Source: Raillietiella orientalis
Taxonomy: Eukaryota
Assembly (NCBI GenBank): GCA_036172245.1
Contig: JAYWIR010000053.1
Span: forward strand, 434,001 to 498,000
Reading direction: 5' to 3'
DNA: 64,000 bases
Shown: positions 2,760-34,250 of the stretch, one piece after another
How the letters are laid out: each line of letters starts with the position of its first letter
Numbering within the stretch: position 1 is the first letter of the stretch
The notes under the pieces: model-generated
Databases searched by the model: none
Told to the model about the DNA's origin: nothing
What the model saw: only the letters and a program-made list of their open reading frames with translations
Made by a program: the position numbers and the translations under genes

Positions 2760-5700
2760 GTTTATTAATAAACACTTTACATTAGCGGTACTAGGCCCCG
2801 CTACGACCAATAGTTGATGAGACGTGCCAGGAAGCCGGTTCGCAGACCGGCTTGACTATCCTCGGCAGCGGAGGGGAGAGGGGGTAAAACAAAAAGAAAA
2901 ATAAATGAAACAAACAAAAAGAAACTATTTGGAGGGCCGGGAAGGTATCACAACCCGCTGGAGGAAGAGACCATTCTTTCCCGGATGCCCTCGAGGTCCC
3001 TCGTCATAGCTCCCAGATGGGACCCGCCGATCGCGATTCGCAGGTAGCGACCCGCGTGTACGATGGGGTCCCTATCGCTGCTTCCTCTGTTGGCTGCGCT
3101 CCAGGCGGCCACAATCCCTCGGAGGCAGCAGAGCGCTGCCACGGTTGAGGCTGGTGGCAGGGCGTCTCGCACGAAGAGGAGTCGCACAACGTCTCTGGAA
3201 ATACTGCCGACCGGCATACGGAGGGTCGTAGCAAAACGTTCCCACAAGGGCCGGAGGGCAGCGCAGTCCACTAACAAGTGGGGGAGGGATTCCTTCTCCC
3301 CGCACACTGCACAGTTCTGTCCCATGTTCCCCAACGTCCAGTGGTGGCGTCTCGCGTTGCAGGGAAGACCCCAGTGCAACAACAGCAGCGCCGTTTCCTG
3401 CCACTTGAGGGGGAGGGTGGATGCGTCTCTGAATAACGGGAACCACATTAGGTAATCCAACGGGATGCCAAGCAGCTCGCCCCATCTCTGGATTTTTCGC
3501 GGGAGAACGCTTGGGGTCGCGGCGTCAGCCAGTACCCTCATGGTCCACCCAATTAACTACTTCTCCTTGCCCGCTATCCGGCAGGTGAGTTGCCACGTCG
3601 GTTTCCGGCTGTTATGAAGCGCCTTTCTCAGGTATGGCAGTGCCGTGGTTAGTGGAGTCGTCTCCGCCCACGTGCTTCTGGCGAGACACTCGATCATGTT
3701 CCGCAGAGTGCAGCGGGTGTAGAAGCCGGGACGCAGGCGGCTGCAGGATTCTCCACTAGGCTGGTTTAACTTCGTCCACGTTCCAACTGTTTCTTCCAGC
3801 CATACGCTGGAGTTGGCGGGGCTGCAGGCCATCCAACCGTTCTCCTTTGCCAAAGTGGCCATGCGTCCCAGGAGAAGGCCGCATCTTCTTATTTTCTGGC
3901 CGGGGCACAGAAGAAAAGACGTGAGTCCTCCAGTCCCGGACACACGTCTGGCAAGGAGGCGGGCCGGAACGCATCAAAGGGTGCTCCACATCTTCGCCGC
4001 GATGGCTAGAGTACACCACCGCAGCTGTGTTTTTATGCTCTCCAGCGTCAGGACTCTAAGACCTCCGTCCCGACGTGGATCGCACAAATCCTCCAGAGGC
4101 ACACGAGGCCTCCCGCCGCCCCACAGGGCGATGCGCTGGTGGCCCTTCGTTCTCTGTTTCATCTCACGGGGTACGGGCAAACAAAAAGCAGGGGGCGAAG
4201 GAGGGGGGCCGCGAACGCGTTCCACACCGTGCCCCTCCGGAGAGAATGAGGAAGGACATTCCCTTCGGGGTTCCCCTTCGGAGACAAACAGGGTGGGAGG
4301 TGCGATCCCCCCGTCCGGGGGGATCCCTCCCCAAGCGTCAGAGGAACGGACTCCGAGTCCTTCCTGGATTTATAGGGAGGACTTACCATCCAGGGGTGCC
4401 CCTATCCTTAAGAATTACACGCCCCACTGCGAGTTGCCGTGGGTGGAGAGGCGTGGAAACAAAGAACCCAAGGATTTCTATCGTCCGGAGAAGTGAAACT
4501 TTCCTTCCAGGAACGGGCCGATCGCCGACTCCACTTTCTGGAGACGATCTGAACAGGCTTCTGACTGGAAGAAGTCCCCCAACGGAACGCCGAGGTACTT
4601 CAGGTACCTCTCCGTGGGGATACCTAGGCGGATCCAATCAGGTCATCTTGCCCACGCTGCATCAACCGCAACCAGCGATCCGTAGTCGCTGTCCCCGTAA
4701 TCCTGTTCACCCGTAGTCCTGTCCCGCGGCTCAGCAAGTCGAAGAAATCCTCGACTGCCGAAGCCATGGGCTGCAGGAGCAGAAGATCGTCAGCATACCC
4801 CGACATGGCCGGCGTACCGGGGCACGAGCTCGGCAGGGCAGCCAGCGTCAGCCTGTACGCTATCAGCACCAACTCAAAGTAGATGCTGAAGAGCAACGGG
4901 CTTAAGCTATCTCTCTGTCTTATGTCTCTGCGCATGGCCACGCCGTACACGCGGGAGCCACTGAAATTCAAGTTGATAAGCAGGAGCGCAAGTACAGGAG
5001 GTGTTGGTTCGGAAGCCCAAGACGCTCCAGGAGCTCCAAAAGGAGTTCCTGGTTGACGCACTCGAATGCTTTATGCAAATCTACTGCGACTGCCAAGGCT
5101 CCCGGCCTTTCTCCCGTCCGTCGGCACTGGCGCTCGCAGTCGGCAGAAGGTCTTGCCGCTGTTCGGCTGTCCGCCGCAACGCGCTCTTGATGCTGCCACC
5201 AGGTGCGCGCGAAAAGAGGTTCGCATCCATGGACTATCCATGCCTCTTCCACGCGCGAACGTTCCGCCAGGGACCTCGTCTCGCTGGAAAGCAGGTGGAT
5301 GTTGAACTCCCCTGCGACGAGATGTGCCACTCTGGCTCCGGAGTTCCTGAGCCATTGGCTCTCCAGTACGTCGAAGAACTCGATTCTTTCGGCACGCCGA
5401 TGAAAGCCGCTCGGCACGTAGACGTTCGTCACGACGAGGTCGATTGAATCTAACTTGTTCCCCGTTTTTTCCGTTTCCTCGATGGGAACCTCCCTTTCTT
5501 TCCGGGCCTTTACTAGCTGCCAGCCCTCCTCCCCCTCCACCACTTGGGAGGGTTGTTCCTCCGACTTCTTCGCCGGAGGTTGAGGTGCTGGCAGCTTCCG
5601 CTGGCAACTTCCTTCAATCGGTCTTGCGATTTTCTTCGCTCTTTTCACCTGCGCATTTTTGGCAGCAGGTGGCACCGGGGTGGGGCTCTTCGGACACACG

Positions 5701-5945
5701 CGCCGAACGTGACCCTTTTCCCCGCATAGGTGGCACACAATATTCGGGCACCTCTTTCGAAGGTGCCCTACTGCATTGCAGTGTCCACAATATCGGGGCT
5801 TCCCCACGTACCAGAGGTCCACCGGCTCTTGGCAGATCTCCAGTTTGTGGGGCAGCGCAATACCCTCTTTTACTGTGATACGCGCCGCAGCTTGACCTCC
5901 GAAAAGGCTATTGTAGCCCCCTCCCCATAAACAACGTCCTCCAAG
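2760..5945 (-). mobile_element. L1/Tx1-like non-LTR retrotransposon copy A, internally deleted and frameshifted
   Basis: ORF1 Y-G-P with two CCHC knuckles (CGHCNAVGHLRKRC, CHLCGEKGHVRRVC); APE motifs NVYVPS and AGEFN; RT motifs VDLHKAF, RQRDSLSPLLF, GYADD, GLRVN, KYLGVP; LW..GGL thumb region; C-terminal CAVCGEKESLPHLLVDC finger (2948..3541); T-rich 3' UTR ending in AATAAA near 2761. Confidence 0.9.
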
Positions 5946-6149
5946 CGTTGTTTTTCGTTTTTTGTATTTTTTTTTCCTTTTTCCCGTCCCCTTCGCGAGT
6001 GGAGAAGGCTTTACCGGTACTCAAGTCGGAAAACAAGTGCATAACAATACGAACAATGTGTTCCGAGAGGAACACAAATACAATTAAAAATCAATCGACT
6101 GCAATACGTTTTTACAAAATAAAAGCCCCGGCTCACCTGGGTGAAAACA

Positions 6150-8937: not shown

Positions 8938-11113
8938 ATGGGTGGAGCGGACAACATCCAGAAGCTGTACGAGAATTACGAAATCATTTCGAATGCAATC
9001 AACAAGAAAGAAGTGCATAAGGTTTGTGCTATGTCGGTTATTGGACATTTTCTTGTTTGCACGTTAAAGGAAGTTAATGTTTGTCAAGCATGTATGTAAG
9101 ATGCGACTACTACGAGTTTGATATGTATTACCTATTAACCCCTTTGCCAAGCGTTGTGAGTTCATTTCTCCTCTGCTTTTTTTTTTCATTAAGCATGAAA
9201 AGGAATTCATGGAGATTCTGAGAGCAGTGAAAGGAACTGACAATGACAAAAGACTGGCTTCTCAGTTTATTGTAAGATTGTTCAAACATTTCCCAAATCT
9301 GACCACGAGAACGATAGATGCACAGTTGGACTTGTGTGAAGATGAAAATGTAGCTGTAAGCCACTGTTTTAATTGTTTTTGCATGTGTGTGTGTGTGTGT
9401 GTGTGTTATCCTTTTTGATTCCTTAGGAAGCATAAACTTTTCCTAAGCATTTTGGAGCACGGATGCAGTGACGCTCCAAAGCTTTGTTTCTCTAGTGAAA
9501 TTGCTTGCTTATTAAAAGTCAGATTGATCATGATCTATTTGCAACATTTTGCATGCATAGATTCAAGTCTTGAAGCTTTACTTTAATGTTAAACTGGCTT
9601 TTCAATAAGCCTGTTTTCCAAAGATCCGTTACCTTTTCCTTATTAGTTTCAGTTTAGCAAAGTGGGCAAGTATTTTGTTATTTTGTGGTATTTGTTTTGC
9701 TAGATTCGTAAGCAAGCTATCAGGGATCTCCCAAGTTTGTGTAAGGACTGCTTAGAATATTTGCCAAAATTGGCTGACGTTTTGGCACAGTTACTTCAGA
9801 CTAATGATGCTTCAGAGTTAGTAGTAGTGCAAAACTCTTTGATGACTCTCTTCCAGATAGATGCTAAAGGTAAGCAATGTTTGTTCTACTGTTTTCAGTA
9901 AAGTATGTGCACAGGTACTTTGGGTGGATTGTTTAGCCAAATCATAGGAGGAGAAGATATTGTTCGAGAAAGAGCTATCAAATTTCTACTCAATAAAGTT
10001 AAAATCTTAGGACCTGACTTTATGACCCCAGAGGTTGAGAAAGTGTTGTTGCATGAAACCAAAAAGGCCTTACAAGTATCTCCTGTTGTTTTATCATGCA
10101 AATAGTGTATTTTTCTTGTGTTAGGACGTAACTGCTGAGGAATTTGTCATGTTCATGAGTATTCTGCAATGCACATCATTGGCAGGAACTGTATCAGGAC
10201 AACAGCTTTTAGTTGACTTGGTAGCTGAACAAGCTGAACTCGACAAACCTTTTAATCCAGAGGAGCTTGAGCAGCTGGATCGTTTGCTACAGTGTATTCG
10301 CCATGCTCTACCTTTTTTTTCTGTATGTATAACCATTTTCTACTTGTGCCTTATGTATCACAGTCTCAAGTATCATCATATCCTTTTATACGTTATTTAT
10401 GTCTGCAAGTAGCACCTCAATGGCAGCACATCAGTAGCAGTGAGGAATCCCTAGAGCTCCTTAAACTACAAGCTGAACTGGCTGGTTACGTGGGCAACAA
10501 CATAGCAGATGGGGAGACCATACTGACTGCCTTGCATCAAGTGCTCATGCACTACCTGCCTATCCCTTCACTAAGTGTCCACGATGAGAGCTTAGATGCC
10601 CTGCCCGATGGTGCTGATGGTACACCTCTGCAGTTGTCTCATGTGGAAGCTCTATTATTAGCCTTTCACCGATTGGCTGCCCATGTACCCACCTTTCTCA
10701 CGCAGGATGGAGAACGCCTTAAAGAATTGCGCCAGCGATTGCAGTTTTTAGCTCGAAGTGTGCAAGGGTACATTCAAGGCTTACGCCAAACGTTGTCTGT
10801 ACAAACAGGGGCTCAGTTAAAAGCTGAAGAAAATAGGCTTAAAGTAGTCGCCCTTAAGACAACATCCAACATCAGTGCCCTTATCAAAGATCTATTCCAC
10901 ACTCCCCCCATCTACAGAGCCAACCCCAGTCCATCTTGGAAACCCCTAGCACCACAAAATCATGTTTCAGCATCCGTTAAGCGTAAGCCTATAACATTTA
11001 GTGAGGACCCCAGCTCTATGAAACAGCCTCGAGGAGCCCGGGAATTGTATCAACCCCCTGGTGGCAAATACAGCAATAAAGTGCAGGGATTTGGTAAGTA
11101 CAGGGTGCTGTGA
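8938..11113 (+). CDS. API5: Apoptosis inhibitor 5 (API5/AAC-11), ~506 aa, 6 exons
   Basis: Exons 8938-9021 (alternative donor 9013), 9194-9355, 9704-9869, 9915-10075, 10125-10322, 10364-11113 join in frame at GT-AG sites. Signature peptides KRLASQFIVRLFKHFP, AQLDLCEDE, GTLGGLFSQI..GEDIVRERAIKFL, KVVALKTTSNISALIKDLFH, YQPPGGKYS. A GTAAGT donor at 11094 could give an alternative C-terminus. Confidence 0.97.
9385..9405 (+). repeat. (GT)n microsatellite in API5 intron 2
   Basis: About ten TG units directly visible. Confidence 0.9.
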
Positions 11114-18199: not shown

Positions 18200-20250
18200 T
18201 TCTGCCGTTCGTGCATGGCGTTCGTCCACAGGACCGCAGCGCACCCCAGCGGCAGATGCCGAAAGGCGTGAGGTCCCACATGAACCGCGATCGAGTGTGA
18301 GTGACCGCCGATAAGCCAAGGGTCTTCTCGATCATTGACAAACAAGACGTGCCTCCGTCGTCGAGGACCAGAATCGAGACAAAAGTTCTACGGAGCCTCT
18401 CTACATCTTTACAACCTTTACAGCTCAACTCCACAGAACTTATAAAAAGATCGCTCGAATAAGCGTGATGTGATAAGTGTGATGAATTTCTTGGTCCACC
18501 ATGTGAAATGGAGCAGACAAGACTCCAGTCAATTGTGGGCGCTTCCTTCAAGAAGATGGAAATGCATTTGTAACCATGGTCCCTCCGGGGCCATCAATTT
18601 CCAAATGGAAGAGAATCCGTTCTTGGTCTCAGGCTGGAGTTCTTCTCCCCTTCGGTTTTGACGAAATACCGGAACCGTTGTTTCCGTACGAAATGACAGA
18701 AGCAATGGAACTGCTTGATGTCGGGGTGCTTCTAGATAAAGCGTTCCTGGTAATAGTGTCCATCCAAAAATCGTACCCACAAATATCCTATTAAAATTAT
18801 GGACTGTTTGATTAGCCTATCCATTGTTTTTCAGATGTATGACCTCATTGTGTAACAGTTCATGCTGATGGTATTTCCTGTCACCGAGCATCAATGGTTC
18901 TCATTTTTTTTTTTTTTTCACAGACATACTCTGTTTTAGGCTTGCTTTCTGTCATCGAAGTTCAGCCTTTGAATTTCTTGGCCTTTCCTTTCTGTTTTCC
19001 CGATTTCGAAGCGGATGCAACCCTGCACCAGGCCGTCTGAAATAACAAGCAGAGCAATCCACGTGTAGCACTGATGGCTTTTAGAGTTCCCTACAGGAGC
19101 TCGAAGAGCTTTGAACTGTTGATGAGTTGTGCCTGAGTGTCCCCAATTCCAGAAGCCAGCTTGCGTGCTTGAAGTCTTCATCCTTCCTTCCTCACACGCT
19201 CGTTTGCCGTGACTGGTGTTCTCCCATATCAAATGCTTCTGTTTTCTCATCAATCGGGATTCATGCTGAAAGTTTTCAGTCAGTGTACTTGTCATCATTA
19301 ATTATGTTGCAAGAATGAGCAAAAACATTCCTCGGAGTAGTCTCTAAAGGTGTGAAAATTGGAGAGGAGTTTCGACGCAATGGGCACATTGATTCTACAA
19401 CACGAATAGCGCATGTTTAAAAATGTGTTGAACTTTATCGATATTCATATCAAGGAAAGAATCCAAAAATCGCCTTCAGAAACATTAGCAGAGAAGAGAT
19501 CCCTTTCAGCTATTATTGATTCGTGTCATGTTTAAAGAATGCCGCACTTTCTAAAACCAAGAGCATCAGAATTGCACTTGATATTTTTGCATTTGTGGAT
19601 CTTCGCTCTATCATCCACCCAAACACAGATGGAACAAGAAATAGAAGACTTGAGTTCTCCGCGGAACGAAAAGGAAAGTGACCTCGTCACGGAAACACGT
19701 TATCACGTCCCGTTCGCCAAGGTTCATGGAAATAATCTTCTGTACCAAAAAGTGAGATGGGATTCAATACAACGTTCTGATAATCCTGGAGATGGCGTAA
19801 ATCCAAAATGACAAGCCTACGAAGAGGTGAACATCTCTAGCAGCTTCCAGAGTGCATGTTGGCGTCATCACCAGAGATGTGCTATCTGTTTACAGTCTTA
19901 TGGAAAGCCTGACTTTCACAATTGTAAACAAAACAGTTCTCCGTTGGTTTGAAGACGCCATGGCATTGAAACTTTGCCTCATTTTTGAATTATGAACAGT
20001 TCTTTGGGTACTCAACCTTGCAAGGCCTCCTTTTCTTTTGCTTTCAGTATTATTAGATGATTAATTTCCATGTATTCCTTTTTCATAAATCTGGTTTTTT
20101 TCTCAGAGGGTTCTCAAAGGAATTTTTCCAATTAATAATGGATTTCTTTTTCTTTCCCCCCTAATATCCTCGTATCTATTTTCCATGTTCGTTTTTCTCA
20201 GAAAGCATAAAAAGATATCTCCTGAAAGGTTTCATTTCAATACTTGTCAT
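18200..20250 (-). mobile_element. Very degenerate L1-like ORF2 remnant
   Basis: IDWSLV...SCKGCKDVE (finger-like), HLIWE, LDMNIDK (~GL.IN..K). Weak overall. Confidence 0.3.
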
Positions 20251-21306
20251 GAGAAATCAAAAAGATTCGGCTGGGATTGATTTATTCACAAAATAAAAAT
20301 GCCCAGGAATCATCGGAAAAAAACAAACAAACAAACGTAGCAACTTTTAAGATGCAGGCATATAGATCCCAAAACAAGGGTTGCACAGCAGCGTTAATAC
20401 CAAAAGTTACATTCGAAAAGCTAAAACAACTTATGACAAATATATTTTGTGATTTTTAGTTCAGAAAACCCAATGGACCAAACAGGGAATACCATTTCAA
20501 GAATCCCATACTATCTCGCACGAATTTTTTTTTCCAATAGAAAAAAAAAGAACACTTTGCTTGGATCGTCCTCACCTCCGCACAACACCCCAAGAAAGTT
20601 TTCTCCAACGTGCACAATGATCACGAATTACAGCATTGCAATTCCCTTTAAATGGCGGCTTTTCGGAAGCTGGGCCGACTTGAATAAGTTAAGCAGTCAT
20701 CATCCCCATAGGTCCCTACTGACATCGTATGTCAGGGAATGGACCATCCGGAAGGATGCACGCCCGCAACCACGCAGTGCTGTGGGATCGTAAAGGTGAC
20801 TTTCCCTGCCATTCCACTTTTCCGTTCTGCCGACTTGGTGTACGCTGCTGCTTGGGCACGAGGAGGAACGGGGCAAACGGAGTCTGCTCTTCGTCTTGCA
20901 CCATCCACTTGTCAAAGACAGCTCTGCAGCCGCAGGGCCCCCGCCATTGCTGCCGCAACCGGTGGTCGCTTAGGCTTGCGGGATCTTCTCAGTGGAAGTG
21001 CCAACCTTCCCTCTCCCTCTCCATCAAGCTGCAGGGCGATTCTGCGTGAACGCCCCAGGCGCTTCTTCGGACGAAAGTGAACGTGGTTCCCCGAGACAGC
21101 GTCCTCAGGCGAGGTCAACGTCGGTCCAGCGGAGCCTCCGGGTCAGTAAGACGGACTTTTGTTCACCGCAGCTTTGCTTCCCTTCACTGCGGGCGTTCGA
21201 ATTGGTAAGCTCAGAAGGAGTGCTGCTGAATGTCATTGACGTTTCGTTCTTTAGGGCCGGCGTTTTGCAAAAGGCGGACAGTGAGTGTTTGAATGTCGGT
21301 GTGAAG

Positions 21307-24300
21307 ATGACATCCGATCATGAAAATTCCAAGCCCCTGACTGTAGAAGATTTCAGTAAAAAATTACAGCTTTGGTAAGGTTTGCAGTGCATTATAATAG
21401 ATGTATGAAGTAGTAATTTGAAGACTTCGATTCGTAATCCAGAAGTGTCATTGCATTTGTAAACATAAGGTATCATATGATGTGTACAGATAAATGTGTG
21501 CACGTATGTACCCGTAGAATGAGGTATATTTATGTACGTAAACAAATAAAGTGACAAAATAAGTTTGAAGTTCAGTCAAACTTGAAATTTGAATTTTTAT
21601 CGATCATTAACGTTATGAAATATTACTGTGTACTATTCTTATATAAATGCTAACCCGGGATTTTTATGGTTTCCTTGATTTTTACCCATTTGTAAAAACT
21701 ACAGTAATGACACGAACAGTTTCACAAGTTTTTTCACCATTTGGCAATGAGGGTGGCCTTTCTGGCACAATTAGTAAATTGATATTAATGCTGGATGTTG
21801 ATGGGTTAAATAAAATGATTGCTATGTGTAAGGAGATATGGTTGAATTTGGTTATGTTAGTATAAGAAGTTTTGAATTTGAAATTAAAAGAGATGATTAC
21901 AAAGATCTCTCGTGAGGATCTTTGTCTTAATTAAGTTAATGAGGTGTAATAATGCTGCTTGAATCAAGCACATTCCAGATTAGACTTAACCTGTTAATTT
22001 TTTTGATGTACTGAAGTGTTTTTTGAATCCACCAATCAAACCGAAATGCAGTGTTGTAGATGCATTTTAAACTGGATAGCTTGTATAGTACTTCAGTTTA
22101 GCTTGTGTAGTCGACATCAAGTAACTTTTTTTTCACAATACTTGACATTTTTGGTTTTTATGAATACTGTGTCATGTATATTCAAGGAAATCTCTTTTGT
22201 ATTCTTTTGTATTACTTAAAATCTGTAATCAGAATTATCAATGATGAATTTTTTTACTAGCCAGTCATAATGTAAACATCAATAATTTTAAACCTCTTTG
22301 AGATCTCTTGTCACATAGAAAAAGAATAATGTTAGTTATAATTAATAAAAAGTAACAATAGAAATAATTTATTATTACTGTTATTATTTATTATACATAA
22401 ATTTTATACTACAGAAGGTTGTATTGTTAAGGTAACATCTTTACAAGATTAATTAATCTTCTGTTCATTCTGGGAAAGAAATGCTTCCTTAATTTTCTCA
22501 TTATATTATATTCATGGTTTCATTGGAGGTTTAGAAAATGCCTAAATCTCTCAGTTATATATTGGGAATCTTTAGCTGGAACATTAAGGATGCCATGTTA
22601 ACTGAAAGATAGGATATATAAAATATATGATATATAATTTTATATTTACTTATTATTATTGTAGTAGAGTCATAAGCAAATATTTCAGATCATGTAGCCT
22701 CATGAATCTGACACTTTGGATATTTGTTTAGTTTTTCACCATGAAAACTAAAATAATTTTTCATTGACATCAAATTGTGATTATGGTTACTCCCCATGCA
22801 TTTAAGAGTATCAATCCCTTAAGATGTTTAAACTCGTTTGCAGTCTACACATATGGTTAGGAGCTAGAATTAAATTTTTTTTTGATGATTGCTTTTCAAT
22901 CATAATCACTCAAATTGTGTGTAGTTATGAAGTGTAGAAGCTTTGAAATGCCAGCACATTAGAATCCATGCTGATCGTATCAGTCAGATATATATTCAAA
23001 AAACAAACAATAAACAATAAGTAGCAGTTTTTAAAGACCAGGGATTAATTTGGGATGGAAGATACTGCACTAGATTTGCTACTTGGCAAAAACTCGGAAG
23101 AAAATCGGAGTCAGCTGAAATTCAAATGTCAACCACAAAGTTCAGGAATCTGGAACATTGGTCAAAATTTTGACATTTCCCAAGTTTGATGTGTAACCAC
23201 ATCATGCTCTAGGATGATTGGAATAATCTGACTTCCTTAAGATTTGTTCTCAATCAGCTTCAGTACTGGTATAGTTACCGAACGATTCTTCTTGAACGAA
23301 TCACCCTACTTGATAGGGTAATTTAGTTGGAAGAATTTATGCCATGTGAGTGCTTTTTACAAGGAAGAATGTGTATAAAGAAATGTTAGTGACCAGTTTT
23401 TTGAATTTCTTTGGTGGCATATGTAAATGTTTACCTGGTTTCCAGATCTTCAGAAACGGTTTACTCGAATTTTGTGAAAAAATTTTACGGGAACATCATG
23501 TAAATGCTGCTTTTCCTTCAAAAGGCGACTTCCTGTATTTGTTGTTCACTTCATTATGTGTGTTTTCTGAAACAACGTCATGCTAAAATGTTATTCCATG
23601 ATAATTAAATTAAATTATTGGAACTTGATGATACAAGAACTCTTAACCATTTTCCCAGCATGACCAGTTCTTAGTCAATATTAGACTGTGCTAAGCCTTC
23701 CGAGTTTTCAGTGCGTCAGAAGTGATATTTCAACTCTACTTTGATCTGTGCGGTTTCTAAGTTGATTGATCTTTATTGAAATCTATTTGGAAATCTACTT
23801 CTATGTGTTTGTATGTGTTTGTGCTCCATGTAACTGTCGTTAAGAAAGTGATTACATTCACCGTCTTCTCGGACAAAAGTGAATCACCTACTGAATCCAG
23901 AGGAATTTTTTCGTGTGGACTAGAAATCAGGAATATTTCCGGAGCCTCTAGGAGTTCTGCTAAGTCTCGAATAGAATGCTGCGTGTTGTTTTCGTGGAGT
24001 TGCATGCCATGTGGATTCATGGTTTGCAAATGCATCAATCATCTCTGAAGCTTCCATATTAAAAGCGTTCATGTTCTTCAAAATGGATCGATAAGGTGTG
24101 GTCAGTCCTCTGTATTCCATCGCATGATTGACAAATTGTGCAGTCACATGGGGGAGCAAAATGCCTTGGTATTTCTCAGATGCTCGTAATAGGATTCTCG
24201 TTTCATATGAATTCTGTTTGCAAAACCAAAGCGAGATCCACGATCTGCAGGAGCCCAAGTTTATTAACTGGACGGTTTGGATGCGCGGAGGAGACTCTCC

Positions 24301-27300
24301 CTCATAAACCAAGGCGGCTGCTGCTGCGTGGAAGGATCTTGCGTTTGCAATTCATTTTTTCGAATTCAACTTTCGTGAACTGCTCGACAGAATTCCAAAC
24401 AATTTAACAAAACAGACTTCGTCTCTTTACACGAAGACATTATAGTTTTGTCTTTTGTTGTGTCAATGTCCACATGTGGAGGAGCCAGTCGTTCCTAACC
24501 AGGCCATTTGCTACAGAGTGGTCTCGTTGTTACTGGAAAGGTTCGCATGGCCTCCAACTGCCGTGAGCCATGGTCCATTTCCGGCTTGACGATTACCAGC
24601 GAATAAGTTTCGGAACACACCTGTCGTGACGCAGATGGGTATACCGAGGAGAACGTCCAACGGAAATCTCCCCCAGCGTCCGTGTGCCACGTCGCCATGC
24701 AAGGCAGACATGAAGCACTGGGCTCCACAAGAGTGGATTCGCCACTGGAGGACGCAGTGCCAGCGCCAACGGGGAGAAAACGACCGAGTACGCCACAAGC
24801 GCCGAAGTCCGTGCTCGTGGATTGAAAGAATTCTGATAAAAAAAAAAAAAAAAAAAAAAGACAAAGTTGTGTGACTTTTGTCGCGTGGGGAAGAGGAATC
24901 GAAAAGAAAGTTCATGGATGTTGCATCGTAGTACAGTGATTGGATGAGTTCGAAGAACGAGCTGTTCACCTGCTGATTTCGTTTTGGATTAGCAGGAGTA
25001 ATCATAAAGCTGATGGTAATGAGCTTTCAGTTGACTCTGCCTGTCACAGAAGAAAGGACATAGTCGTACCAGAGCAAAGATTTAGATTAAAGTGTTGATT
25101 GGCTGTCCAGTGGGCAGCACTGTCCTGCAGCCATGCAGTGGCGGATTCCTCGATTGCTTTGTAGAATGCTGGCACGGCTCGCATGGCAAGGAAGCGTCTC
25201 CTGCGATTCATCTCCCGTGCATCTGTGGATTTAAAAAAACAAATTTCACTGGCAGGAATTTTAACTCTTTTATGGACGGCGGTTTTTCGCGGTCCTTTCC
25301 TAGAAATAACCCTCCTGTTTTCACAGCTTCTCTCGTGGCTATGCGTGCGATGCGTTTTCCTACCCCTTTCTGTTGCACTCTCTGGGGGGTCTTGTTCCTA
25401 GTCAGGCACCTGAAACCTTCTCCGCAGCCCTGGTAACTTCAGCATTTGTCATCGAAAGCCGTGCTCTTCCTCCTTCGCCTTCAAGCACTCCTCAAGGCTC
25501 GATGCCATAGGAGATTGAAGGTTCGTGCTGTGCTATCCTACACATAGGTCGAGACCGTGACATCTGTTACGTCACTGATGTTTAGTGGAAGCGAAAGAAG
25601 CGGGGGTGATGCATTCTTTTCGAGCAGTTGAGCATGCTGTGAGCCATGATCTGAATCAGTGTTGAAAGGAAATGCATAACCGATGTTTTTCCGTTTATCC
25701 GTGCGCCTGTTATCGGCAGAGACAACAGACGTTGCCGCGAGGACCATTGCTTGGATCTCAGCATCTGAAAACACGGATTCTCTTGTACTGTGTCTTCATT
25801 TCTAGTATCGAGTTCCTAACGGTATCTTCTTTCGACCGGCTGTTGGTGTACCAGCAGCATTGGCTCGGCGCGCAGCTGCCATCGACTGCTGAGCTTTCCG
25901 TTTTCTTGGAGTTCCACCGACGGCCAGTTTTGTCACCGGGATCCTGTCGAAGTCACTCCGCGTTTTTCATGAGGAATCCCACTAGGTAGTTTCGAGTGCC
26001 CCAGCTGCATTCTCGTTTACCCGGACGTTTCGTGGTTCGCGACGCCTCCTTCAATTTTATTGGCGGGATGGCGCTATGGAGGCTGCTTTTTAGTGGTCTT
26101 CGGTGTAGCGCCGTTTCCTATGCGGAACAAGGGAACGCAAGAGTTCCGTTTCCGGCATCGGTTCTGCATGAGCTTTTGCGTCGGGGCAGCGTTCCGCACG
26201 CTGCAAGCCCCATCAGTGGGCTGAATAAACATCAGCAGCAGCCTTTTTTTTTTTTTCGATCCTCGAACCATCGAGCACTCCATCGTCAGAGTCACATCGG
26301 ATGGTCTTTCCTCTGCATGCGCAAGAGACCCCTCTTCGCTCTTCACTTCTCAAGGGAAATTTTTTTTTAAAGGGAGGGCAGGAGATTTATTAGGGGGGGA
26401 TTCGGATATGTGTGTTTTCGTATGGTAGTTTGGGAAATGACACGTTGGACTGATGCTCCTTTGTGGTTGTCAACACCTGCTAGAAGAAGGTCGGAAGCCC
26501 GCCTCATTGCCTCGTCCAGGCACGTCCGAGGGAACTCGTGGGCTGGAAGTAGGAGCAAAAGACCTCGGCGGATTGCCCTCGGCTATCCGGCACCAGATTT
26601 GCAAAAGCTGCTGTCGCTCGCCGCAACGAGCTGGTAAACTGGTAGGGCTTCATCGTTTCTGGCTCCCGTTTTTCGGTCGCTTTGCGATGATGATGCCAAC
26701 CACTTGGTTTGGCGTCTCCCTGCTGCGTGAGGCATTCCTCTATCGTTAAGTAATTGTACTTCCTGTTGTATCATACTGTTGTTTGGAGGTCAGTTACCCC
26801 AATCGGGCGAGGTCTTGTCCGAGGACTTCACGAGGACAAGCAGCGCCCATGTGTGTACGCTGTACAGTTGCTCGTTTTCAGCCGTGTTCTCCCGTCGTAC
26901 AAGACAGGCAGGCAATTCTGATTTTGATGGTCTTCCCAGCGCAGCAACTTGCCTACTGTGACCATTCCGTGTTCAGCTCGTCTACACGGAAGGTCAAGGG
27001 AAACTCGGTTTGCGATTTCGAGTTTCTGGGTCGTCCACCTTGTTCTCCCAGATGCTTGTGTTCGTTCCGACCAGACCGAAAGGGTGTCTGTGGCATTTCG
27101 TCACCGCTTCTGACGATCGACTGTCGTTTCGCACTTAACCTTTCTGTGAGGGGCCATGCAGGCTTCAGAGGTCGAGTTTTGAAATGCGTGTTCTCTTGCT
27201 GTTCCCTCGCATCGCCCTTTGATACACTAGGGTGTGTGTGCACAGAGGTCACGTGTTCGCAAAGCACGGGTGCCGGTTTTTCGGTAACGTTGAACCTTCG

Positions 27301-29768
27301 CTAGCACAGGTTCGCAAGTTTTTTCATGAGCAGAGGTTTGCCTTGTGACACTCCTAGGTATGAGGCCCGGAACTGGATCAGAATGAAAATAATGATCTCG
27401 AATGATCACAAATTTTTCAGTCCTCTTTTCTTTTTTTCCGGGTTGCTTGCGAGTTGCTTGGAGGACCAGGTTCGTCGCAGCGCGGCCTGGACTTTCCTCT
27501 TCGCACGTTTACGACCAAACTCCCGATACGCGTGGGTGACGCGTTCTCGGGATCGCCGGGTGCGTTGGAATTCGCGGGACGCCTGTTCCGAGGGACCGGC
27601 GGCGATGTCAGTTTGAACGCAGGTCGGAACGACTCCTTTCCGTTGCTCTGCCTCGTGGGGCGGAGTTTCCGTGGTTCCTGATGCGCCTTGCCAGCGCTGT
27701 TGGGACTGTCTTTCGCTGTTTTCGGCGGATTTCCCCCTTTCCCCGCTTTCGCGAGGCGCGCGTGAGATGAGCGTTCAGGGTTCAAAGGCACTTGACTAAC
27801 GCGTCACAGAGTGGATCTCCGAAGGACAGCTCTGCAGACGCACCCTCCCGCATCTGACGCAGTCGGTACTTTCCGTGGGCGCGGTTCCTTTGCGGGCGGG
27901 GTTTTGGTGATTTTTTCCCGCGTCTTGTGACAACAGGATAAGAGGGGAGGCAGCGGTTCCTCGCGGGGAAGGACGCGCGCATGATGGGCTCCGCACGGTC
28001 TCCGACGGCTGCGGAGTCGCAGCTGCTCCTACGGCCCCGGACTCACGAACTGCGTTCCAGGTTCAAGCAAAAAGGCCTGCTGGGCGAGGTCCAGTCTTAC
28101 CTGAGGTACTGCCTGATCCAGACCCTGCAGAGCAAGTGCTCTCACAAGAAGACGGCGCAGCTGGTCTCCCCGATAAAGTGCGCCCTCAACTGGCTCGTTG
28201 CCGAACACCTGCTCGCCAGCGGTTACTTTTATTCCCTGTCCGTGCTGAAGAGCGAGGCTCCGGCCCTGCAGGAGTTTCCGGATGCACCCGATCCCAAGAG
28301 GAAGCGGGTCGGCGTTCTCAGGTGGACGACGGGCAAGGCGGAGTGCCAGCGAAACGCGCAGGAGATCCTGGAGTCGTTCGGGCTCGGTCGGGATAGCGAC
28401 GCCAGCCACTTCATCCTAAGCAGCTACGAGGAAGGCGAGGACTCCCTCCTGCTCTGCATGCTGAGGTCCCTGCACCACTTGCTCCCCGACCCCACCACCG
28501 AGAAGCTGAACTCTCGGATCTGCGAGGCGGAGAGGAAGGCCAAGCTGCTCGAGGAGAAGGTCAAGATAGTGTCGGAATCGGAAAGACGCTTCCAGGAGTT
28601 GCAGAGGAGCTTGGACGTCAGGAATAACAGGAAAGCGGGCGAGGAACTGAGTAGGTTGGAGGCTGAGCGTCCGCGTCGAACCGCACGCCACGAATCTTCC
28701 CGGCAGGCGGAAGCTGGAGGAGGAGACGGAGCGGTTGAGGGAGGAGCAGCGGAAGCACGTGGAAGCGATCGAGCGGGAAAAGGAGATGCTGGAGAAGAGC
28801 TACAAGGGCAGATTGGAGGGTCTTCAGCGGGACGCGGAGCAGAGCGAAAAAAAGCTGAATGAAGAGTACCGGATGAAGGAGGACGAGCTATACCGGCAGC
28901 GTCAGGAAGTGCTGAAGGCTGTGGAGCAGCTGAGGCACTGGAAAGGCCAGCTGGAGGCCCGGCTGACCCTCTGCGAGACCCAGGAGCTCCAGGCGTTGCA
29001 GAGCAAGGAGGCCCTGGTCAGGCGGGCGCGGAGCCACGTGCTCAGCAGCGCGCCGGCAACGCCTTTCCTCCTGCGGGCTCAGCCCGAAGGGTGAGTCTGC
29101 TCGCCCGCTCCCCGGCCGCGTTGCGGGACCGTCCGCCTTCCAGGACTCAAGACACGGGGTCTGTCCGTCCTCTCGCCGTCGCCACCAGGTCCACGGGCGT
29201 CCAGGCGGAGGAAGCCGAGACGCCTGACGCCGGGGACCAGGTCACTCAACCCGAGCGCTTCCTCTGGGAATCCCAGCAGCGAATCCGCACGCTGGAAGAG
29301 CAGGCGCGAAAGTTGCAACTGAGCTACCAGAGCTCGCGTCAGCGCCTGCTGCTGCGGCCACCCGCCTCCGCCGCTGGCCTGTGCTCCAATGCAGCGGCGA
29401 GGACACTGGCCACTTGGAGCGCCTCCGAGAAGCCTTCCCCTCCGAGGAGGGTGCCGCGGCCAGCGGCGTGGCCGCAGCCTCACCTCGCGGACCTCGACGC
29501 GACATCGAGCGAGGGTGCCGACCGCGGAGGAGACCCAGCTTCGCATCCTACTCCGGAGCATAGGGTGGTTTCCGGCGGGGACAGGGACCTCAACCTCGAG
29601 TCGGAGGTGATGGACAGCTCCAGGGCCATGCCCCCTCCTGCAGCCAGCAGCGGTTCCAACCGCAGAAGGATTTCTCAGGCGGAGGTCATCGGTGCCATCG
29701 TGAGGTCCCAGGCGGCTACGGAGGACCACGGCTGCTCGCTCTCCTCTCACGACAGCGAGGCTTGGTGA
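21307..29768 (+). CDS. OFD1: OFD1-like centriolar protein (LisH domain plus coiled coils), ~556 aa, 4 coding exons
   Basis: Exon 1 21307-21374 (MTSDHENSKPLTVEDFSKKLQLW, GTAAGG donor, phase 2) joins 28061 (FKQKGLLGEVQSYLR), matching OFD1 [24 protein letters not shown]. LisH motif NWLVAEHLLASGYFYSLSVLKSEA. Exons 28061-28654, 28707-29090, 29144-29768 sum to an open frame. The C-terminus is less certain. Confidence 0.85.
23650..24400 (-). mobile_element. RTE-like non-LTR remnant (post-RT region) in OFD1 intron 1
   Basis: QLINLGS (~YLGS), then AMEYRG...LKNMNAFNM...W, resembling YG.E.W...L..F.MRCLR..I.W. Confidence 0.4.
25050..25900 (+). mobile_element. Degenerate non-LTR RT core in OFD1 intron 1
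   Basis: Ordered motifs SGGF, SVDLKK, TPQGS and YVTD (~YADD). Confidence 0.45.
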
Positions 29769-29981
29769 CCGCAGAGGGGGTCAGGGAAGAAAAAAATAAC
29801 TCCTCTTCCGGTTCCTTCACCCGTCGCCAGGGCGATTGCGGCGGGGGCGGCGCTCCCCTCTCCGTTGTCAGCAGGGTGTTGGGCTTGCAGCGCTGGCTGC
29901 CCAACTGGGGTGTGACATCCTCACTGACCCGAGTTCACCTTTCGTTTCACAGCGGCGGTGGACGGTTGCGTTTCTCTCCAG

Positions 29982-32900
29982 GCGTTCCCGGAACCGATCC
30001 TCTTCCCGAGCGACAGAGTCCCGATAGAAATAAAGCTGTGCGTCCCTCGCTTCCCTTCCTTGCGACCCTCAACCTACGAGTGCATGAAGTCCAGTAAGAG
30101 GGGAGGTGGCGGTGCCCTACTCCCCGGTCGAACCCGCGCTCTCTGCTGCTTCCAGTTGCGTTGGGTCACCTGAAAGGCGAGGCCTACGGCAAGCTGAAGC
30201 GCCGTTACGAGCGGCTGGTCCAGGAGGAAGACGCGGACGACTCGCTTGCGCTCCTGTACGCTGGCGTCTTCTCCTTGTTCCACGCTGCTCTGCGCCTACC
30301 TCCGATGTCCGTGTCTAAGGACGCCCTCGGGAGCGAGCTGTCCGTGCTGGGGTGGGTGCGACCGCCCGTCCCGACCACATCGGTACTACCGTGGATCTCA
30401 AAAAGTCTTCCAGAGTCCGTTGTCGAGGACTTCTGCATGACGGTGGTGGGTCCAGAGCGTTCCCACTTGCAGGGAACCCTTGTCATGGCCTGCCCGACGC
30501 TTCCGGTCATCCGCTGCTTGAAGTGGAAGCTCGACATTACCTTGATGTCCAGGTAGTCTGGCTTTGGGCTCTTTTGAATCCTCTCCTCCGACGTTCGGCG
30601 GCTTTCCCCTCTCCCTACAGTAACTCCCATCGAAACCTGCTGCTGCCTACCTATCGTTTTCTTGTTGAGCACCGCAGACCCTCAATGACTGGCCTGTGTG
30701 TTGCAGCGTCGAGCAATGCGTACGTAAGCTGAGGGACCTTTCTCGTTTCCCTCTTCAATCCTCTGTTCCTACAACGTGGATTTTTCTCTTCGTTTTCGCT
30801 AACCCTTACGGCATTGCAGAACATCACATATGTGCTGACCCTCTTCATATTCACGATGCGCGTGAGTCCGTAAGTTGCTAGCTATGGGGACTCCTCCCGA
30901 TACAGGATTGCCAAGTGATTTATATGATGAAAGAGGCGACGTAAAAGTATTCAACCAATAATAATTAACATCTTGAATATATTCATTGCATGCGACACGC
31001 AGTGGTACATATGTTTTCGATTAAATTGAATGGAATGGTCACGTGTGCGCGAGCATCAAAGGAACGAAAAACGACGGTCCAATCCCTATCGAGAGGTTAA
31101 TTCTCCTGTCTTCACCCTGCGCAGCCCCCGAATAACAGCTTCCGCAGGTCTCCCAATGGTTTGACGATGAAATTTCGAGAATAGGAAATTCATCCAACCT
31201 TGCCAGCCTCCAATCACCTCATTCCTCTCAGTGGCGTACCTTCAATCAAAGAGTGAAGAACACCGCGCTCACTACTCTACTCTCGAAGGTGGACCAACTC
31301 GAGCTAGCTGACCCGCTCATCTGTTTCCCGATTCTGAAGCCCTCGCCACCTCCGGTCTTACTTTTCCTATCTTCGCCTTTCCCCGTGTAATGATCTTCAC
31401 GTATCTGGGCCTTTACGAATGAGTGGCCGAAGCACTAGGACAGCACGGAAGCCAGTCTGATCTCTGATCGCCCTTTGCCTTTTCCTACCTCTCCATCTAC
31501 CCGGTCATGTCACCCTTTCCTTACAATGAAGTATTCCTTGGTTCAAACAATCGCACTTACCCCATTTTTATCCACATGCAGCTTCTTGATCAAGCAACCG
31601 CAGTTACCCGGATCCTTCAGATTAATCACAAGCTTAGAATGAAGAACGATCCCAACCTAACCCACTCCCCTTCAGAATGGATCCTCACAAATGACCTCAC
31701 AACACTTTTGATGCTGCGACCACGGATGAAATGAAGCAGCGAATCCGGTTGAATTGAGTTGCTCGGCGGATGGACGCACCGGAAACGCGCGCGAGGGACC
31801 TTTCCCCTCCTCCGTTCGGATTGCGCGTTCGCGCACTTTGGACCGCTCCGGAGGCATTCCGGAGGTTGGCGGGTCTGGCGTCTGTCTCGAGATTCGTTGT
31901 TGATGGGACGCGCAGGTGGCACGCCGGTGGGCTCAGATGTCCACATCTGGTCCTGCCGCCCGTATTTTCCAACGACGCCATGCCTGACCGATCTCTGGCG
32001 GGAGGAGAGCTGCCGAGGGCGCATTCGACGGAAACGCGCGAGCAGCCTTTCCCCTCCGCCGGTCGGGGGCAGAGGAACATGCGCGTGCCGCGGACGACCG
32101 AGCGTGTCGAGACGCGCATTCGTCCTGTCCTCACGCCTCCAAAGAAGCGCGTTCCGAGGTGACCAGAACCCTCGACCTCGGGCGTAGGGAAAGAACGCAC
32201 ACAGATCGGTCGGCTGCGCCGAACCGAATCGCCAAGGCGCCTCCGCGCTGCCTTCCAGGCGAGAAGCCGTTTGACATCACCTGGGCTTCGCCAGAGGTGG
32301 ACCCGCTGCTGCACACGCCGCGTACCCAGGTCTTCGTGCTTCGTGATTTGTTTTTTTTTTTCGTCTTGAAAAAGGCCACAGGTGCGCGCCGCTGCTAGTG
32401 GGCCTTGCGGAAAACGGGCCGCATCTCTCGCGAAGTCCTTCGTGGCTGCGTACGACGCGTACGGGGGAAGTGGGGAAGGACCGACTCTCCTGTGCACGAG
32501 TAGCGGGAAGGGCGGCCCATCACGGTCCCCACGGCGGAGGCGTTGCTTTGGAAGCACGTCCTCTGCGCTCGGAGTTGGTGCGCCACTCACCCTCTTCCGT
32601 CCGAGCGGGAGAACGCTGTCGTACCAGCTTATAGCAGCTTCTGCAGCGGGTCAGCCCCGCCTGCTCCTCCCTTGATGCGAGCCGCGCACCAGACGAGCGG
32701 TGGTGCCTGTGCTCCTGGCATCTTGACTCAAGGCGACATCCCGGTGGACGATCACGGCATCTTACGCGTGGCTACACTTACTGCAAGGCGCGCGACATCC
32801 GTTCCCTTACCCAAGGTGGAGGGCAGGGCCGAGGCGCAGGCGCTCTCGATCCCAAGTTCCTCGCCCGCGGGGCCTCTTTTTCGCCTCACCCTGCGCTTCT

Positions 32901-33246
32901 TCCGCGCCCTGCGCAGACGGTATCTGGGAGTCGTCGGGGTCGCCCCCGGGTCTACCAGTCACTCTCCCTCTTCCTCCCGGAGGAGGGCCGGAAGCCGCGA
33001 TGATCGTCGCTCGTGAACTCGGAAGCTTCTCATTCGAATGTTTTTTTTTTTTTTTTCACCTCCGCCCCCGGGAGCAGTTCGCCCGAAGAGACCGCGGGGC
33101 CCTCCGTCATCCTCGCCATCATGGACAGCACCGGGAAGCAAAGGACGCTGAAGTTCTCCCACCAGATGTTGCAGGAGCTGCGGTTCCACCTGGCGGCTCT
33201 GCTGCGAGACATGGCTGTGGCGGAGGGCAAGTTCGCCCTCCGCTGA
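29982..33246 (+). CDS. COMMD5: COMM domain-containing protein 5, 5' start exon not located
   Basis: Exons 29982-30093, 30156-30351, 30406-30552, 33078-33246 join in frame: ILFPSDRVPIEI...LALLYAGVFSLFHAALRLPPMS...LPESVVEDF...LKWKLDITL...PSVILAI...LQELRFHLAALLRDM. This matches COMMD5 LGALLAGMHTLLQQALRLPP, FRWRVDVAI and FQELRYSVALVLKEM. Confidence 0.92.
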
Positions 33247-33549
33247 CTCGGCGCGCGCGCGAAATACACCGCACGTGCCATTCACATGGGGCCTTCCTGT
33301 CGCTCCCCCTCTCCTCCCGGCCTTCCCGCTCGCCCTGGAAACGGGACAGCGGCTGGTGGAGGCGCTTTCCGGGTTCGCAGGAGGGAATGGGTCCGCGCGC
33401 CCAGGTCCGGGGGTAGGGCATCCTAGCGCATCCCTGCGGACGGGAGATGCACCTCACCTCCGGGGCCATTGGCAGCCCTCCCAGAGGAGGGGACGGAGGA
33501 CGCACCCGCCGCTGTTCCACAAGGACTCTGACTCCTCCTGGACCTCTTC

Positions 33550-34250
33550 GACCAAGGAGAGCGGCCTTCCGCATGCCTTTCTCTGGCGGGCCACGCGCAG
33601 GAGAGCCCTTTCTATGCTTCTTCCTCCACCCTCTTCTATGTGCTTTCTATCTCTCTTCCTCCGCTCCTCTTCTATGCCGCCCTCCAGTGGCTCCTGCGGC
33701 GGGGCAGGTGAGCGGTGGTCCAGAGTACACCAGTGCCACTCCCCTTGGCGCGTCCTGCGGGAAAGCAGGTGCCGAGTTGTCCACGACGGAGCCAGAGGGA
33801 GATGCCATGCCTCAGCGACCCCGACGCGCAAGTCGGGCGGAAGTTCGATCTACCTGGTGGTCGACTTCTTCTACAGCTTCCCTCCAGATTGCTGGGGCCC
33901 GTCGGAGCAGGAGGGAAGAGGAATCGAGGTGACCTTGACCTCTTCCTGAACCTTTGGTGGATGACAGCAGCCTGCTCCGCGAGCGCCCTCAGTTTTGGCA
34001 AACAACACTGGCCCTGGAGGGTGAATCGGGCATTGCCTTCGGGCACCCGACGTGGACCTCAAAGTGCCGGACCGCGGGCTGGCTTCGCCGTTTCCGAAAC
34101 CACATCCCGCTGCTGGCGACGTACCGCTTTCAAGTGCGAGAGCCCAACCGCCGTGGCGTAGCCGGTCCTGCCTTCCGGTGCGCCCCCTCATCGGAGGCCG
34201 CAGGCTACATCGATTCCTCCGTTCCGACGTGTTGGGTGGCGTTCTAGGTC
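33550..34250 (+). mobile_element. Possible degenerate APE endonuclease remnant
   Basis: Weak ordered motifs FYA/MPP, YLVVDF (~GDFN) and NHIPLLA (~SDH.P). Confidence 0.25.

Follow-up and report, generated by a model that had tools for sequence, protein, structure and literature searches.

Where does translation of COMMD5 begin? In the 64,000-nucleotide (nt) stretch of Raillietiella orientalis DNA analyzed here (contig JAYWIR010000053.1, positions 434,001 to 498,000; hereafter the window), a gene for the Commander subunit COMMD5 follows the centriolar gene OFD1 on the same strand. Its first recognizable coding exon opens 213 nt past the OFD1 stop codon, and no ATG precedes the conserved sequence. 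We tentatively attribute the COMMD5 start to an upstream exon, within or beyond OFD1, that would be spliced in cis to this coding sequence. The start poses a genuine annotation puzzle, of moderate interest, rather than a demonstration of a new kind of mechanism.

The COMMD5 gene model can be read directly from the plus strand. It consists of a first recognizable coding exon at 29982-30093 (37 codons plus 1 nt, containing Met 30084 and ending at the donor CCA/GTAAGA); exon 2 at 30156-30351, preceded by a 62-nt intron; exon 3 at 30406-30552, preceded by a 54-nt intron, where the COMM domain begins; and a last exon at 33078-33246, preceded by a 2,525-nt intron and closed by the stop TGA at 33244-33246. 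All three introns are of the GT-AG type. The spliced model, 207 codons without an initiator Met, aligns nearly end to end, through the COMM domain to the carboxy terminus, with four COMMD5 proteins (P0004 from a lobster, P0057 and P0058 from geckos, and P0059) at E-values of 2e-25 to 2e-29 and 26-29% identity. Searches with single exons or open reading frames (ORFs) return weaker values. The Pfam COMM_domain model gives E = 0.014 on the last exon scanned alone (16 bits, under the 22.4 cut-off), and a HMMER search of 1.84 billion representatives with the ORF at 30098-30553 returned five proteins at E <= 0.001, the best at only 1.7e-04. Four of these five are 216-236 residues long, and three have source names, lobster COMMD5-like (two isoforms) and gecko COMMD5; the fifth match, P0005, has 1,618 residues. 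The PDB yields just three matches at E <= 0.001, all of them human COMMD5 chains. The gene is called COMMD5 because of the homologue alignments, the named HMMER matches and the human structures. Word-based protein searches with the ORF at 30098-30553 found no match at near or at longer lengths, and of the 498 stretches whose pattern matched in a metagenome locus scan, none is a relative. As judged from homology, the downstream gene is COMMD5, in a lineage without a close relative in the searched libraries, and its exon structure is that of an intact, functional-looking four-exon gene.

The difficulty lies at the amino terminus. The COMMD5 alignments open at residues 4-8 of the model, that is, 4-8 residues past the junction 29981/29982, opposite residues 12-30 of the homologues. 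The aligned position of Met 30084 falls midway through the conserved N-terminal domain, and a protein begun there would, by this alignment, be short of part of that domain; the base at -3 of this ATG is T. Homology upstream of Met 30084 is directly visible. BLASTP of the translated segment 29928-30092 matches P0059 at E = 0.004 in a collinear position, with no match to P0004 or P0058, and a profile of four COMMD5 N-termini gives 3.8 bits for the 34 residues before Met 30084, a score reached by 10 of 1,000 shuffles, versus -1.5 to 1.5 bits for five controls in other frames. In addition, the GC content at third codon positions (GC3) of exon 1 is 0.76 (29982-30092), compared with 0.76-0.91 in the local exons, and its codon log-odds is +8.8. 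Together these results argue, with moderate statistical support, that the sequence upstream of Met 30084 is coding. The homologues carry a further N-terminal tail of 11-29 residues for which exon 1 has no counterpart.

The N-terminal helical domain is present, but neither the exon nor the 213-nt gap supplies an ATG ahead of it. Indeed, no ATG occurs in any frame between 29629 and 30083, the closest being 29610 and 29628 on the upstream side and 30084 on the downstream side. The length of this interval is not significant, as 0.079 of 2,000 dinucleotide shuffles are also ATG-less and the window contains eight longer ATG-free intervals. That fraction led us to drop the idea that a shortage of ATGs marks a leader or reinitiation.

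The gap itself (29769-29981, plus strand) ends in an acceptor of observed strength. The site at 29981/29982 (...GCGTTTCTCTCCAG/GCG) is in phase 0 and scores 7.7 on a simple splice-site weight matrix built from textbook frequencies rather than trained on this locus. It ranks first among 509 plus-strand AGs in 26000-34000 and lies at the 99.6th percentile of the plus-strand AGs of the window; a second acceptor-like site, at 29952, lies at the 98.6th percentile. We take the acceptor at 29981/29982 as probably real because the best site in 8 kb sits at most 30 nt from the onset of homology. Upstream of it, the gap contains an in-frame GTG at 29958 and the frame-0 stops TGA 29913 and TGA 29925, and its first 147 nt (29769-29915) have in frame 0 a GC3 of 0.59 and a GC content at second codon positions (GC2) of 0.76. 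The first AATAAA past the OFD1 stop lies at 30029. It weighs little because canonical signals are scarce in this GC-rich stretch: for COMMD5, too, an AATAAA is missing from the roughly 950 nt next to its stop, where only an AATACA at 33263 is present. An earlier note on this DNA had described COMMD5 coding sequence that lacks its own ATG and begins at the phase-0 acceptor 29982, 213 nt past the OFD1 stop, behind an ATG-free gap with in-frame stops and with the first AATAAA inside COMMD5 coding sequence. Each of these observations was reproduced, and the core of that note, that COMMD5 opens at a real-looking acceptor and must take its start from upstream, stands on the onset of homology and the rank of the acceptor.

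From this arrangement we infer use of the acceptor, a partner joined to it in cis, and the places where that partner may lie. A genuine phase-0 3' splice site at 29981/29982 would open the first recognizable coding exon of COMMD5, and a small upstream exon, spliced to 29982, would encode the initiator ATG and a short N-terminal tail. Because the 213-nt gap lacks an ATG, the start exon would have to lie inside or upstream of OFD1, and the COMMD5 transcription unit would overlap OFD1 on the same strand. In favor of this reading, the locus has long introns elsewhere, of 6,686 nt in the distal model of OFD1 and 2,525 nt in COMMD5, and legal partner exons are available, with 33 phase-0 donors scoring at least 3 behind in-frame ATGs in the 10 kb upstream. 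Two special cases can be drawn. The start exon may be 21230-21280, beside the distal candidate start of OFD1, with OFD1 nested in COMMD5 intron 1, or it may lie within the last exon of OFD1, with ATG 29610 or 29628 and a donor at 29700.

Several points weigh against a cis-spliced upstream exon. Overlap of two unrelated genes on the same strand is uncommon. The matrix that ranks the acceptor first places two verified COMMD5 acceptors at only the 46th and 51st percentile and is a weak judge. Frame 0 is open back to 29928, and the segment 29928-29981 has a codon log-odds of +6.2 against a 95th percentile of 6.3 in a null of GC-rich intron windows; the pyrimidine run at 29981 could be coding as well. 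Ten candidate N-terminal extensions gave profile scores of 2.0-3.6 bits, none above exon 1 alone (3.8), and homology cannot pick out the first exon because the N-terminal tails of COMMD5 are too variable. Also, the regular OFD1 donors (21375, 28655 and 29091) are all in phase 2, which does not match the frame at 29982, so that any donor partner of 29982 must be an extra, otherwise unused one. Resemblances to COMMD5 N-termini picked out by eye at 29949-29981, 29832-29909, 29628-29699 and 27681-27761 were dropped; they brought no gain in the profile, and we put them down to a composition rich in Ala, Gly and Pro.

The OFD1 gene has two candidate starts, both ATG. The distal candidate first coding exon spans 21307-21374 on the plus strand, with A at -3 of its ATG 21307, and ends at the phase-2 donor TTG/GTAAGG at 21375. 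The LisH exon (27981-28654) carries the proximal start ATGATG at 27981, or is entered at the acceptor 28060/28061. A coiled-coil exon follows at 28707-29090, with a 52-nt intron before it, a 53-nt intron after it and a GC3 of 0.86, and joining the exons keeps the frame open; the translation shows, by eye, a charged stretch of heptad-like pattern. The last exon (29144-29768) ends with the stop TGA 29766-29768 and contains ATG 29610 and ATG 29628 in the COMMD5 frame as well as a possible donor, ATC/GTGAGG, at 29700, which scores 3.99. The tail of this exon is coding-like, with log-odds of +6.2 and +9.6. Pfam LisH_2 is matched at E = 6.3e-08 (32 bits, cut-off 27), and the nearest Atlas cluster, to be read as a lead only, is 'oral-facial-digital syndrome 1 protein-like' and mostly arthropod, at a score of 0.91.

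For the distal start speak its donor, which scores 8.11 (99.2nd percentile), and an in-frame join to 28061 that yields a protein of 556 residues after a first intron of 6,686 nt; against it are the GC3 of the exon, 0.36, and the weakness of acceptor 28060, which scores -2.0. Judging from human OFD1, the distal exon would also fit the helix spacing at the N-terminus of this family better. The proximal segment 27981-28061 is coding-like in frame 0 only, at +9.5 (null 95th percentile 6.1), with -12.4 and -11.0 in the other frames. Alternative OFD1 promoters are possible. The first coding exon of OFD1 was rejected as a shared exon for COMMD5, as its donor at 21375 is in phase 2 and the joined frame hits a stop. 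A separate observation concerns the exon ending at 21280: were it joined to the AG at 27935-27936, the frame of ATG 21230 would stop at TGA 27982-27984, which overlaps the proximal ATGATG, as is typically seen where a main start is coupled to an upstream ORF. A near-repeat of 22 nt, 86% identical, occurs upstream of the proximal OFD1 ATG (27939-27960) and at the start of COMMD5 intron 1 (30095-30116), probably by chance; a search for repeats linking the promoter regions found short two-copy matches only.

The exon at 21230-21280 (plus strand) was the first proposal of the earlier note for the COMMD5 start. It runs from ATG 21230 for 17 codons to the phase-0 donor ACA/GTGAGT at 21281, and a neighboring ATG at 21293 with a donor at 21299 would give MS/AF. 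Both readings were found again in the sequence, and the description of ATG 21230 as lying next to the OFD1 start holds for the distal start at 21307 and fails for the proximal start at 27981. Donor 21281 scores 6.95 (97.7th percentile of plus-strand GTs). It is one of 33 distinct phase-0 donors in 20001-29981 that score at least 3 behind an in-frame ATG with no stop between, seven of which score at least 6, and it comes third among the 33, behind 20796 (8.3) and 23500 (7.0). The codon log-odds of the exon is -6.3 with the first, non-held-out GC-rich training set. ATG 21230 and ATG 21293 both have T at -3 and T at +4, a context no less suited to upstream ATGs tolerated in a leader than to a main start. 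The GC-rich stretch around donor 21281, which comes shortly before the distal OFD1 ATG, may be a promoter. The splicing arithmetic of the proposal is right, but this is one candidate in 33, and neither peptide improves the N-terminal match to COMMD5. It is unlikely that one promoter and the exon 21230-21280 serve both genes, with splicing to 29982 yielding COMMD5 and use of sites downstream of the exon yielding OFD1; equally unlikely is the nesting that this would entail, in which all OFD1 coding exons 3' of 21230-21280 would lie in COMMD5 intron 1. If true, it would couple a protein of the centriole and cilium to a Commander subunit.

Such nesting is known from the cholinergic locus. In Ixodes ticks, ChAT and VAChT are described as sharing an 82-bp first exon that is alternatively spliced, with one promoter serving two unrelated proteins; the entire VAChT reading frame is located in ChAT's first intron, and the shared exon was shown by RT-PCR (PMC7524744). 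The hypothetical nesting of OFD1 in COMMD5 intron 1 would be of the same kind. Unlike ChAT and VAChT, which belong to one pathway, OFD1 and COMMD5 are functionally unrelated, and the shared exon proposed here would carry the COMMD5 start codon.

The alternatives to a cis-spliced upstream exon differ in where they would place the start. Short intergenic promoters are an ordinary arrangement in compact genomes, and a promoter of COMMD5's own in the 213-nt gap would match the ordinary expectation for a compact locus; we regard it as somewhat unlikely. As no AUG precedes 30084, translation would start either at a near-cognate codon or at Met 30084, the latter giving a truncated protein. The mRNA would be unspliced in the gap or would lose the 72-nt intron 29910-29981 as an intron of the 5' untranslated region, and the donor for this, at 29910, scores 4.05, inside the range of verified donors (3.05-9.6). 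In an unspliced mRNA, the frame from the stop at 29925 to 29982 offers a single near-cognate codon, GTG 29958, and its context is strong, with G at -3 and G at +4. The interval 29629-30083 is free of ATGs in all frames, as a leader would be, and 29928-29981 is open and borderline coding-like. On the other hand, the ATG-free interval is no longer than shuffled sequence readily gives, Met 30084 falls inside the conserved domain with its T at -3, no stable RNA structure is found past GTG 29958 (z-score 0.40), and extending the protein by 29958-29981 or by 29928-29981 lowers the N-terminal profile score from 3.8 to 3.2 and 3.0. The best acceptor of the locus would also have to be a coincidence. 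Exclusive non-AUG starts are rare, and this counts against a GUG start in particular. Genes that use GUG only are known, DAP5/eIF4G2 being described as one (PMC5666671). Like that gene, COMMD5 would have a single in-frame GUG in strong context upstream of conserved coding sequence, with the next AUG in frame; unlike it, no hairpin was found downstream, and a strong acceptor separates the COMMD5 GUG from the conserved residues. Also unlikely, more so than a promoter in the gap, is an artefact or a recently lost start. Here an ATG or small exon would be hidden by an assembly or consensus error, or this copy would be decaying while another serves. No ordinary kind of start was found, and consensus errors are commoner in GC-rich sequence such as this region (about 0.62-0.64). 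Against this, the window contains no N, each of the four exons has an open frame and legal splice sites, GC3 is 0.76-0.91, and a single-base change creates an in-frame ATG in 29928-29981 only at GTG 29958.

Addition of a spliced leader (SL) in trans at 29981, or at 29952, would make OFD1 and COMMD5 an operon-like pair and would supply an AUG or a near-cognate start. This is very unlikely, although a strong acceptor without an obvious donor partner, 213 nt past an upstream stop, is what it would look like. Flatworm leaders are reported to end in AUG, which more than 40 Schistosoma cDNAs need (PMC9851317), and trans-splicing is reported to occur in copepods (PMC4664967). COMMD5 resembles the flatworm cases in having a phase-0 acceptor followed directly by ATG-less conserved coding sequence. 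The resemblance ends there: three genes of the window have arthropods as their nearest relatives and look arthropod, and the arthropod leaders and leader-like sequences described for copepods end in AAG or GAG, not AUG (PMC4664967). In addition, API5 and a carboxylesterase-like gene in the window have their own ATGs, as do both candidate starts of OFD1, and an Rfam scan, SL RNA families included, found no match in the 64-kb window, although such genes usually lie elsewhere. The earlier note had offered a dicistronic or trans-spliced mRNA starting at Met 30084 as a third option; trans-splicing is retained from it at this low weight, and initiation at Met 30084 would remove part of the conserved N-terminal domain. 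An in-frame OFD1-COMMD5 fusion protein, made by read-through and splicing via introns 29765-29830 and 29910-29981 or via a single intron from 29700 to 29982, is the most improbable of these readings and, from the sequence features that follow, unlikely as the main product. The note was right that the last OFD1 exon and COMMD5 exon 1 share a frame and that the two introns leave the fusion open: both genes are in frame 0, and the three proposed introns are multiples of three with open fusion frames. The shared frame is no more than chance, with prior odds of 1 in 3. The 66- and 72-nt introns are close to the local short-intron class of 45-62 nt. Against the fusion, the middle exon (29832-29909) has a log-odds of -18.3 in a held-out test trained on local exons, versus a non-coding null with mean -6.6 and standard deviation 7.5, and the part of the gap that holds it (29769-29915) has the GC3 of 0.59 and GC2 of 0.76 given above, versus a GC3 of 0.76-0.91 in real exons. 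The donors at 29765, 29910 and 29700 are weak (3.0, 4.05 and 3.99; 84th-90th percentile), and the penultimate donor at 29091, the usual route for read-through, is in phase 2 and leads out of frame. These features, the non-coding-like middle exon, the weak donors and the out-of-phase regular donors of OFD1, tell against the fusion that the note had proposed. OFD1 would normally run to its own stop because its tail past donor 29700 is coding-like (+9.6). A search of longer database proteins for a fused one found none, which is weak evidence, and an extension of 560 residues seems a poor fit for a ring subunit. Partners in conjoined genes normally each have a start and promoter of their own too. 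COMMD3-BMI1 is a human conjoined, or read-through, gene involving a COMMD family member (PMC6862657). OFD1 and COMMD5 are likewise adjacent on one strand, and the fusion would likewise arise by read-through transcription and intergenic splicing; unlike in conjoined genes, COMMD5 would depend on the upstream gene, and the regular OFD1 donors are out of phase.

Other routes to COMMD5 were set aside. The OFD1 stop at 29766, the gap stops at 29913 and 29925 and the COMMD5 stop at 33244 are each TGA followed by C, which is the most read-through-prone stop context in insects. Read-through of three such stops was judged far too inefficient for a stoichiometric subunit. Reassignment of TGA was discarded, as API5, OFD1 and COMMD5 each stop at TGA where their homologues stop, and reinitiation after the 560-codon OFD1 frame was considered and set aside as well. 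Frame 2 contains a Met-less open frame of 177 codons (29564-30097) that runs from the OFD1 tail through the entire gap into COMMD5 exon 1; within the gap its codon log-odds is near neutral (-3.7 over 70 codons), and we take it as a by-product of GC-richness.

If the start exon of COMMD5 does lie within or beyond OFD1, a housekeeping Commander subunit would depend for its expression on how a centriolar gene is transcribed or spliced. This would be a rare same-strand overlap, which automatic annotation would miss or would cut short at Met 30084. A GUG start, if true, would make COMMD5 one more gene initiated exclusively at a non-AUG codon, here in an invertebrate. The practical lesson stays local, in that COMMD5 needs transcript evidence before it is annotated, and no long-standing question depends on the outcome.

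The surrounding window is heterogeneous. Its GC content, in 2-kb windows, ranges from 0.32 to 0.68, and codon usage shifts sharply within 20 kb, from a GC3 of 0.45 in API5 (8938-11113) to 0.76-0.91 in the OFD1 and COMMD5 exons (27981-33246). API5 (8.9-11.1 kb) has its nearest relatives in the API5 proteins of insects and chelicerates, with 45-49% identity over the C-terminal half, and the source would accordingly be an arthropod or something close to one. Very short introns of 45-62 nt form a class of their own (9870-9914, 10076-10124, 28655-28706, 29091-29143, 30094-30155 and 30352-30405), and a few long AT-rich introns of 2.5 and 6.7 kb occur beside this short class. The long introns and flanks contain no ORF over a Pfam cut-off that would point to a hidden gene, among 145 ORFs of at least 125 residues and 144 of the 157 ORFs of 55-124 residues at 14-27.9 and 30.6-36.5 kb. 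ARAGORN found no tRNA gene in the window, and the scan for bacterial-type promoters and terminators is uninformative for a eukaryote.

On the minus strand, a carboxylesterase-family gene at 37600-39400 matches Pfam COesterase on two ORFs (E = 2.5e-61 and 3.9e-23); it starts with a Met of its own and is hydrophobic at the N-terminus and in a C-terminal stretch. At what we take to be the position of the serine-hydrolase elbow, GxSxG, it reads G-R-F-T-G-A. It may, on these features, be a non-catalytic, neuroligin-like membrane protein. Also on the minus strand, ORFs at 2951-6020 show weak zf-RVT and zinc-knuckle matches, below the Pfam cut-offs, that suggest a decayed retroelement of the long interspersed nuclear element (LINE) type.

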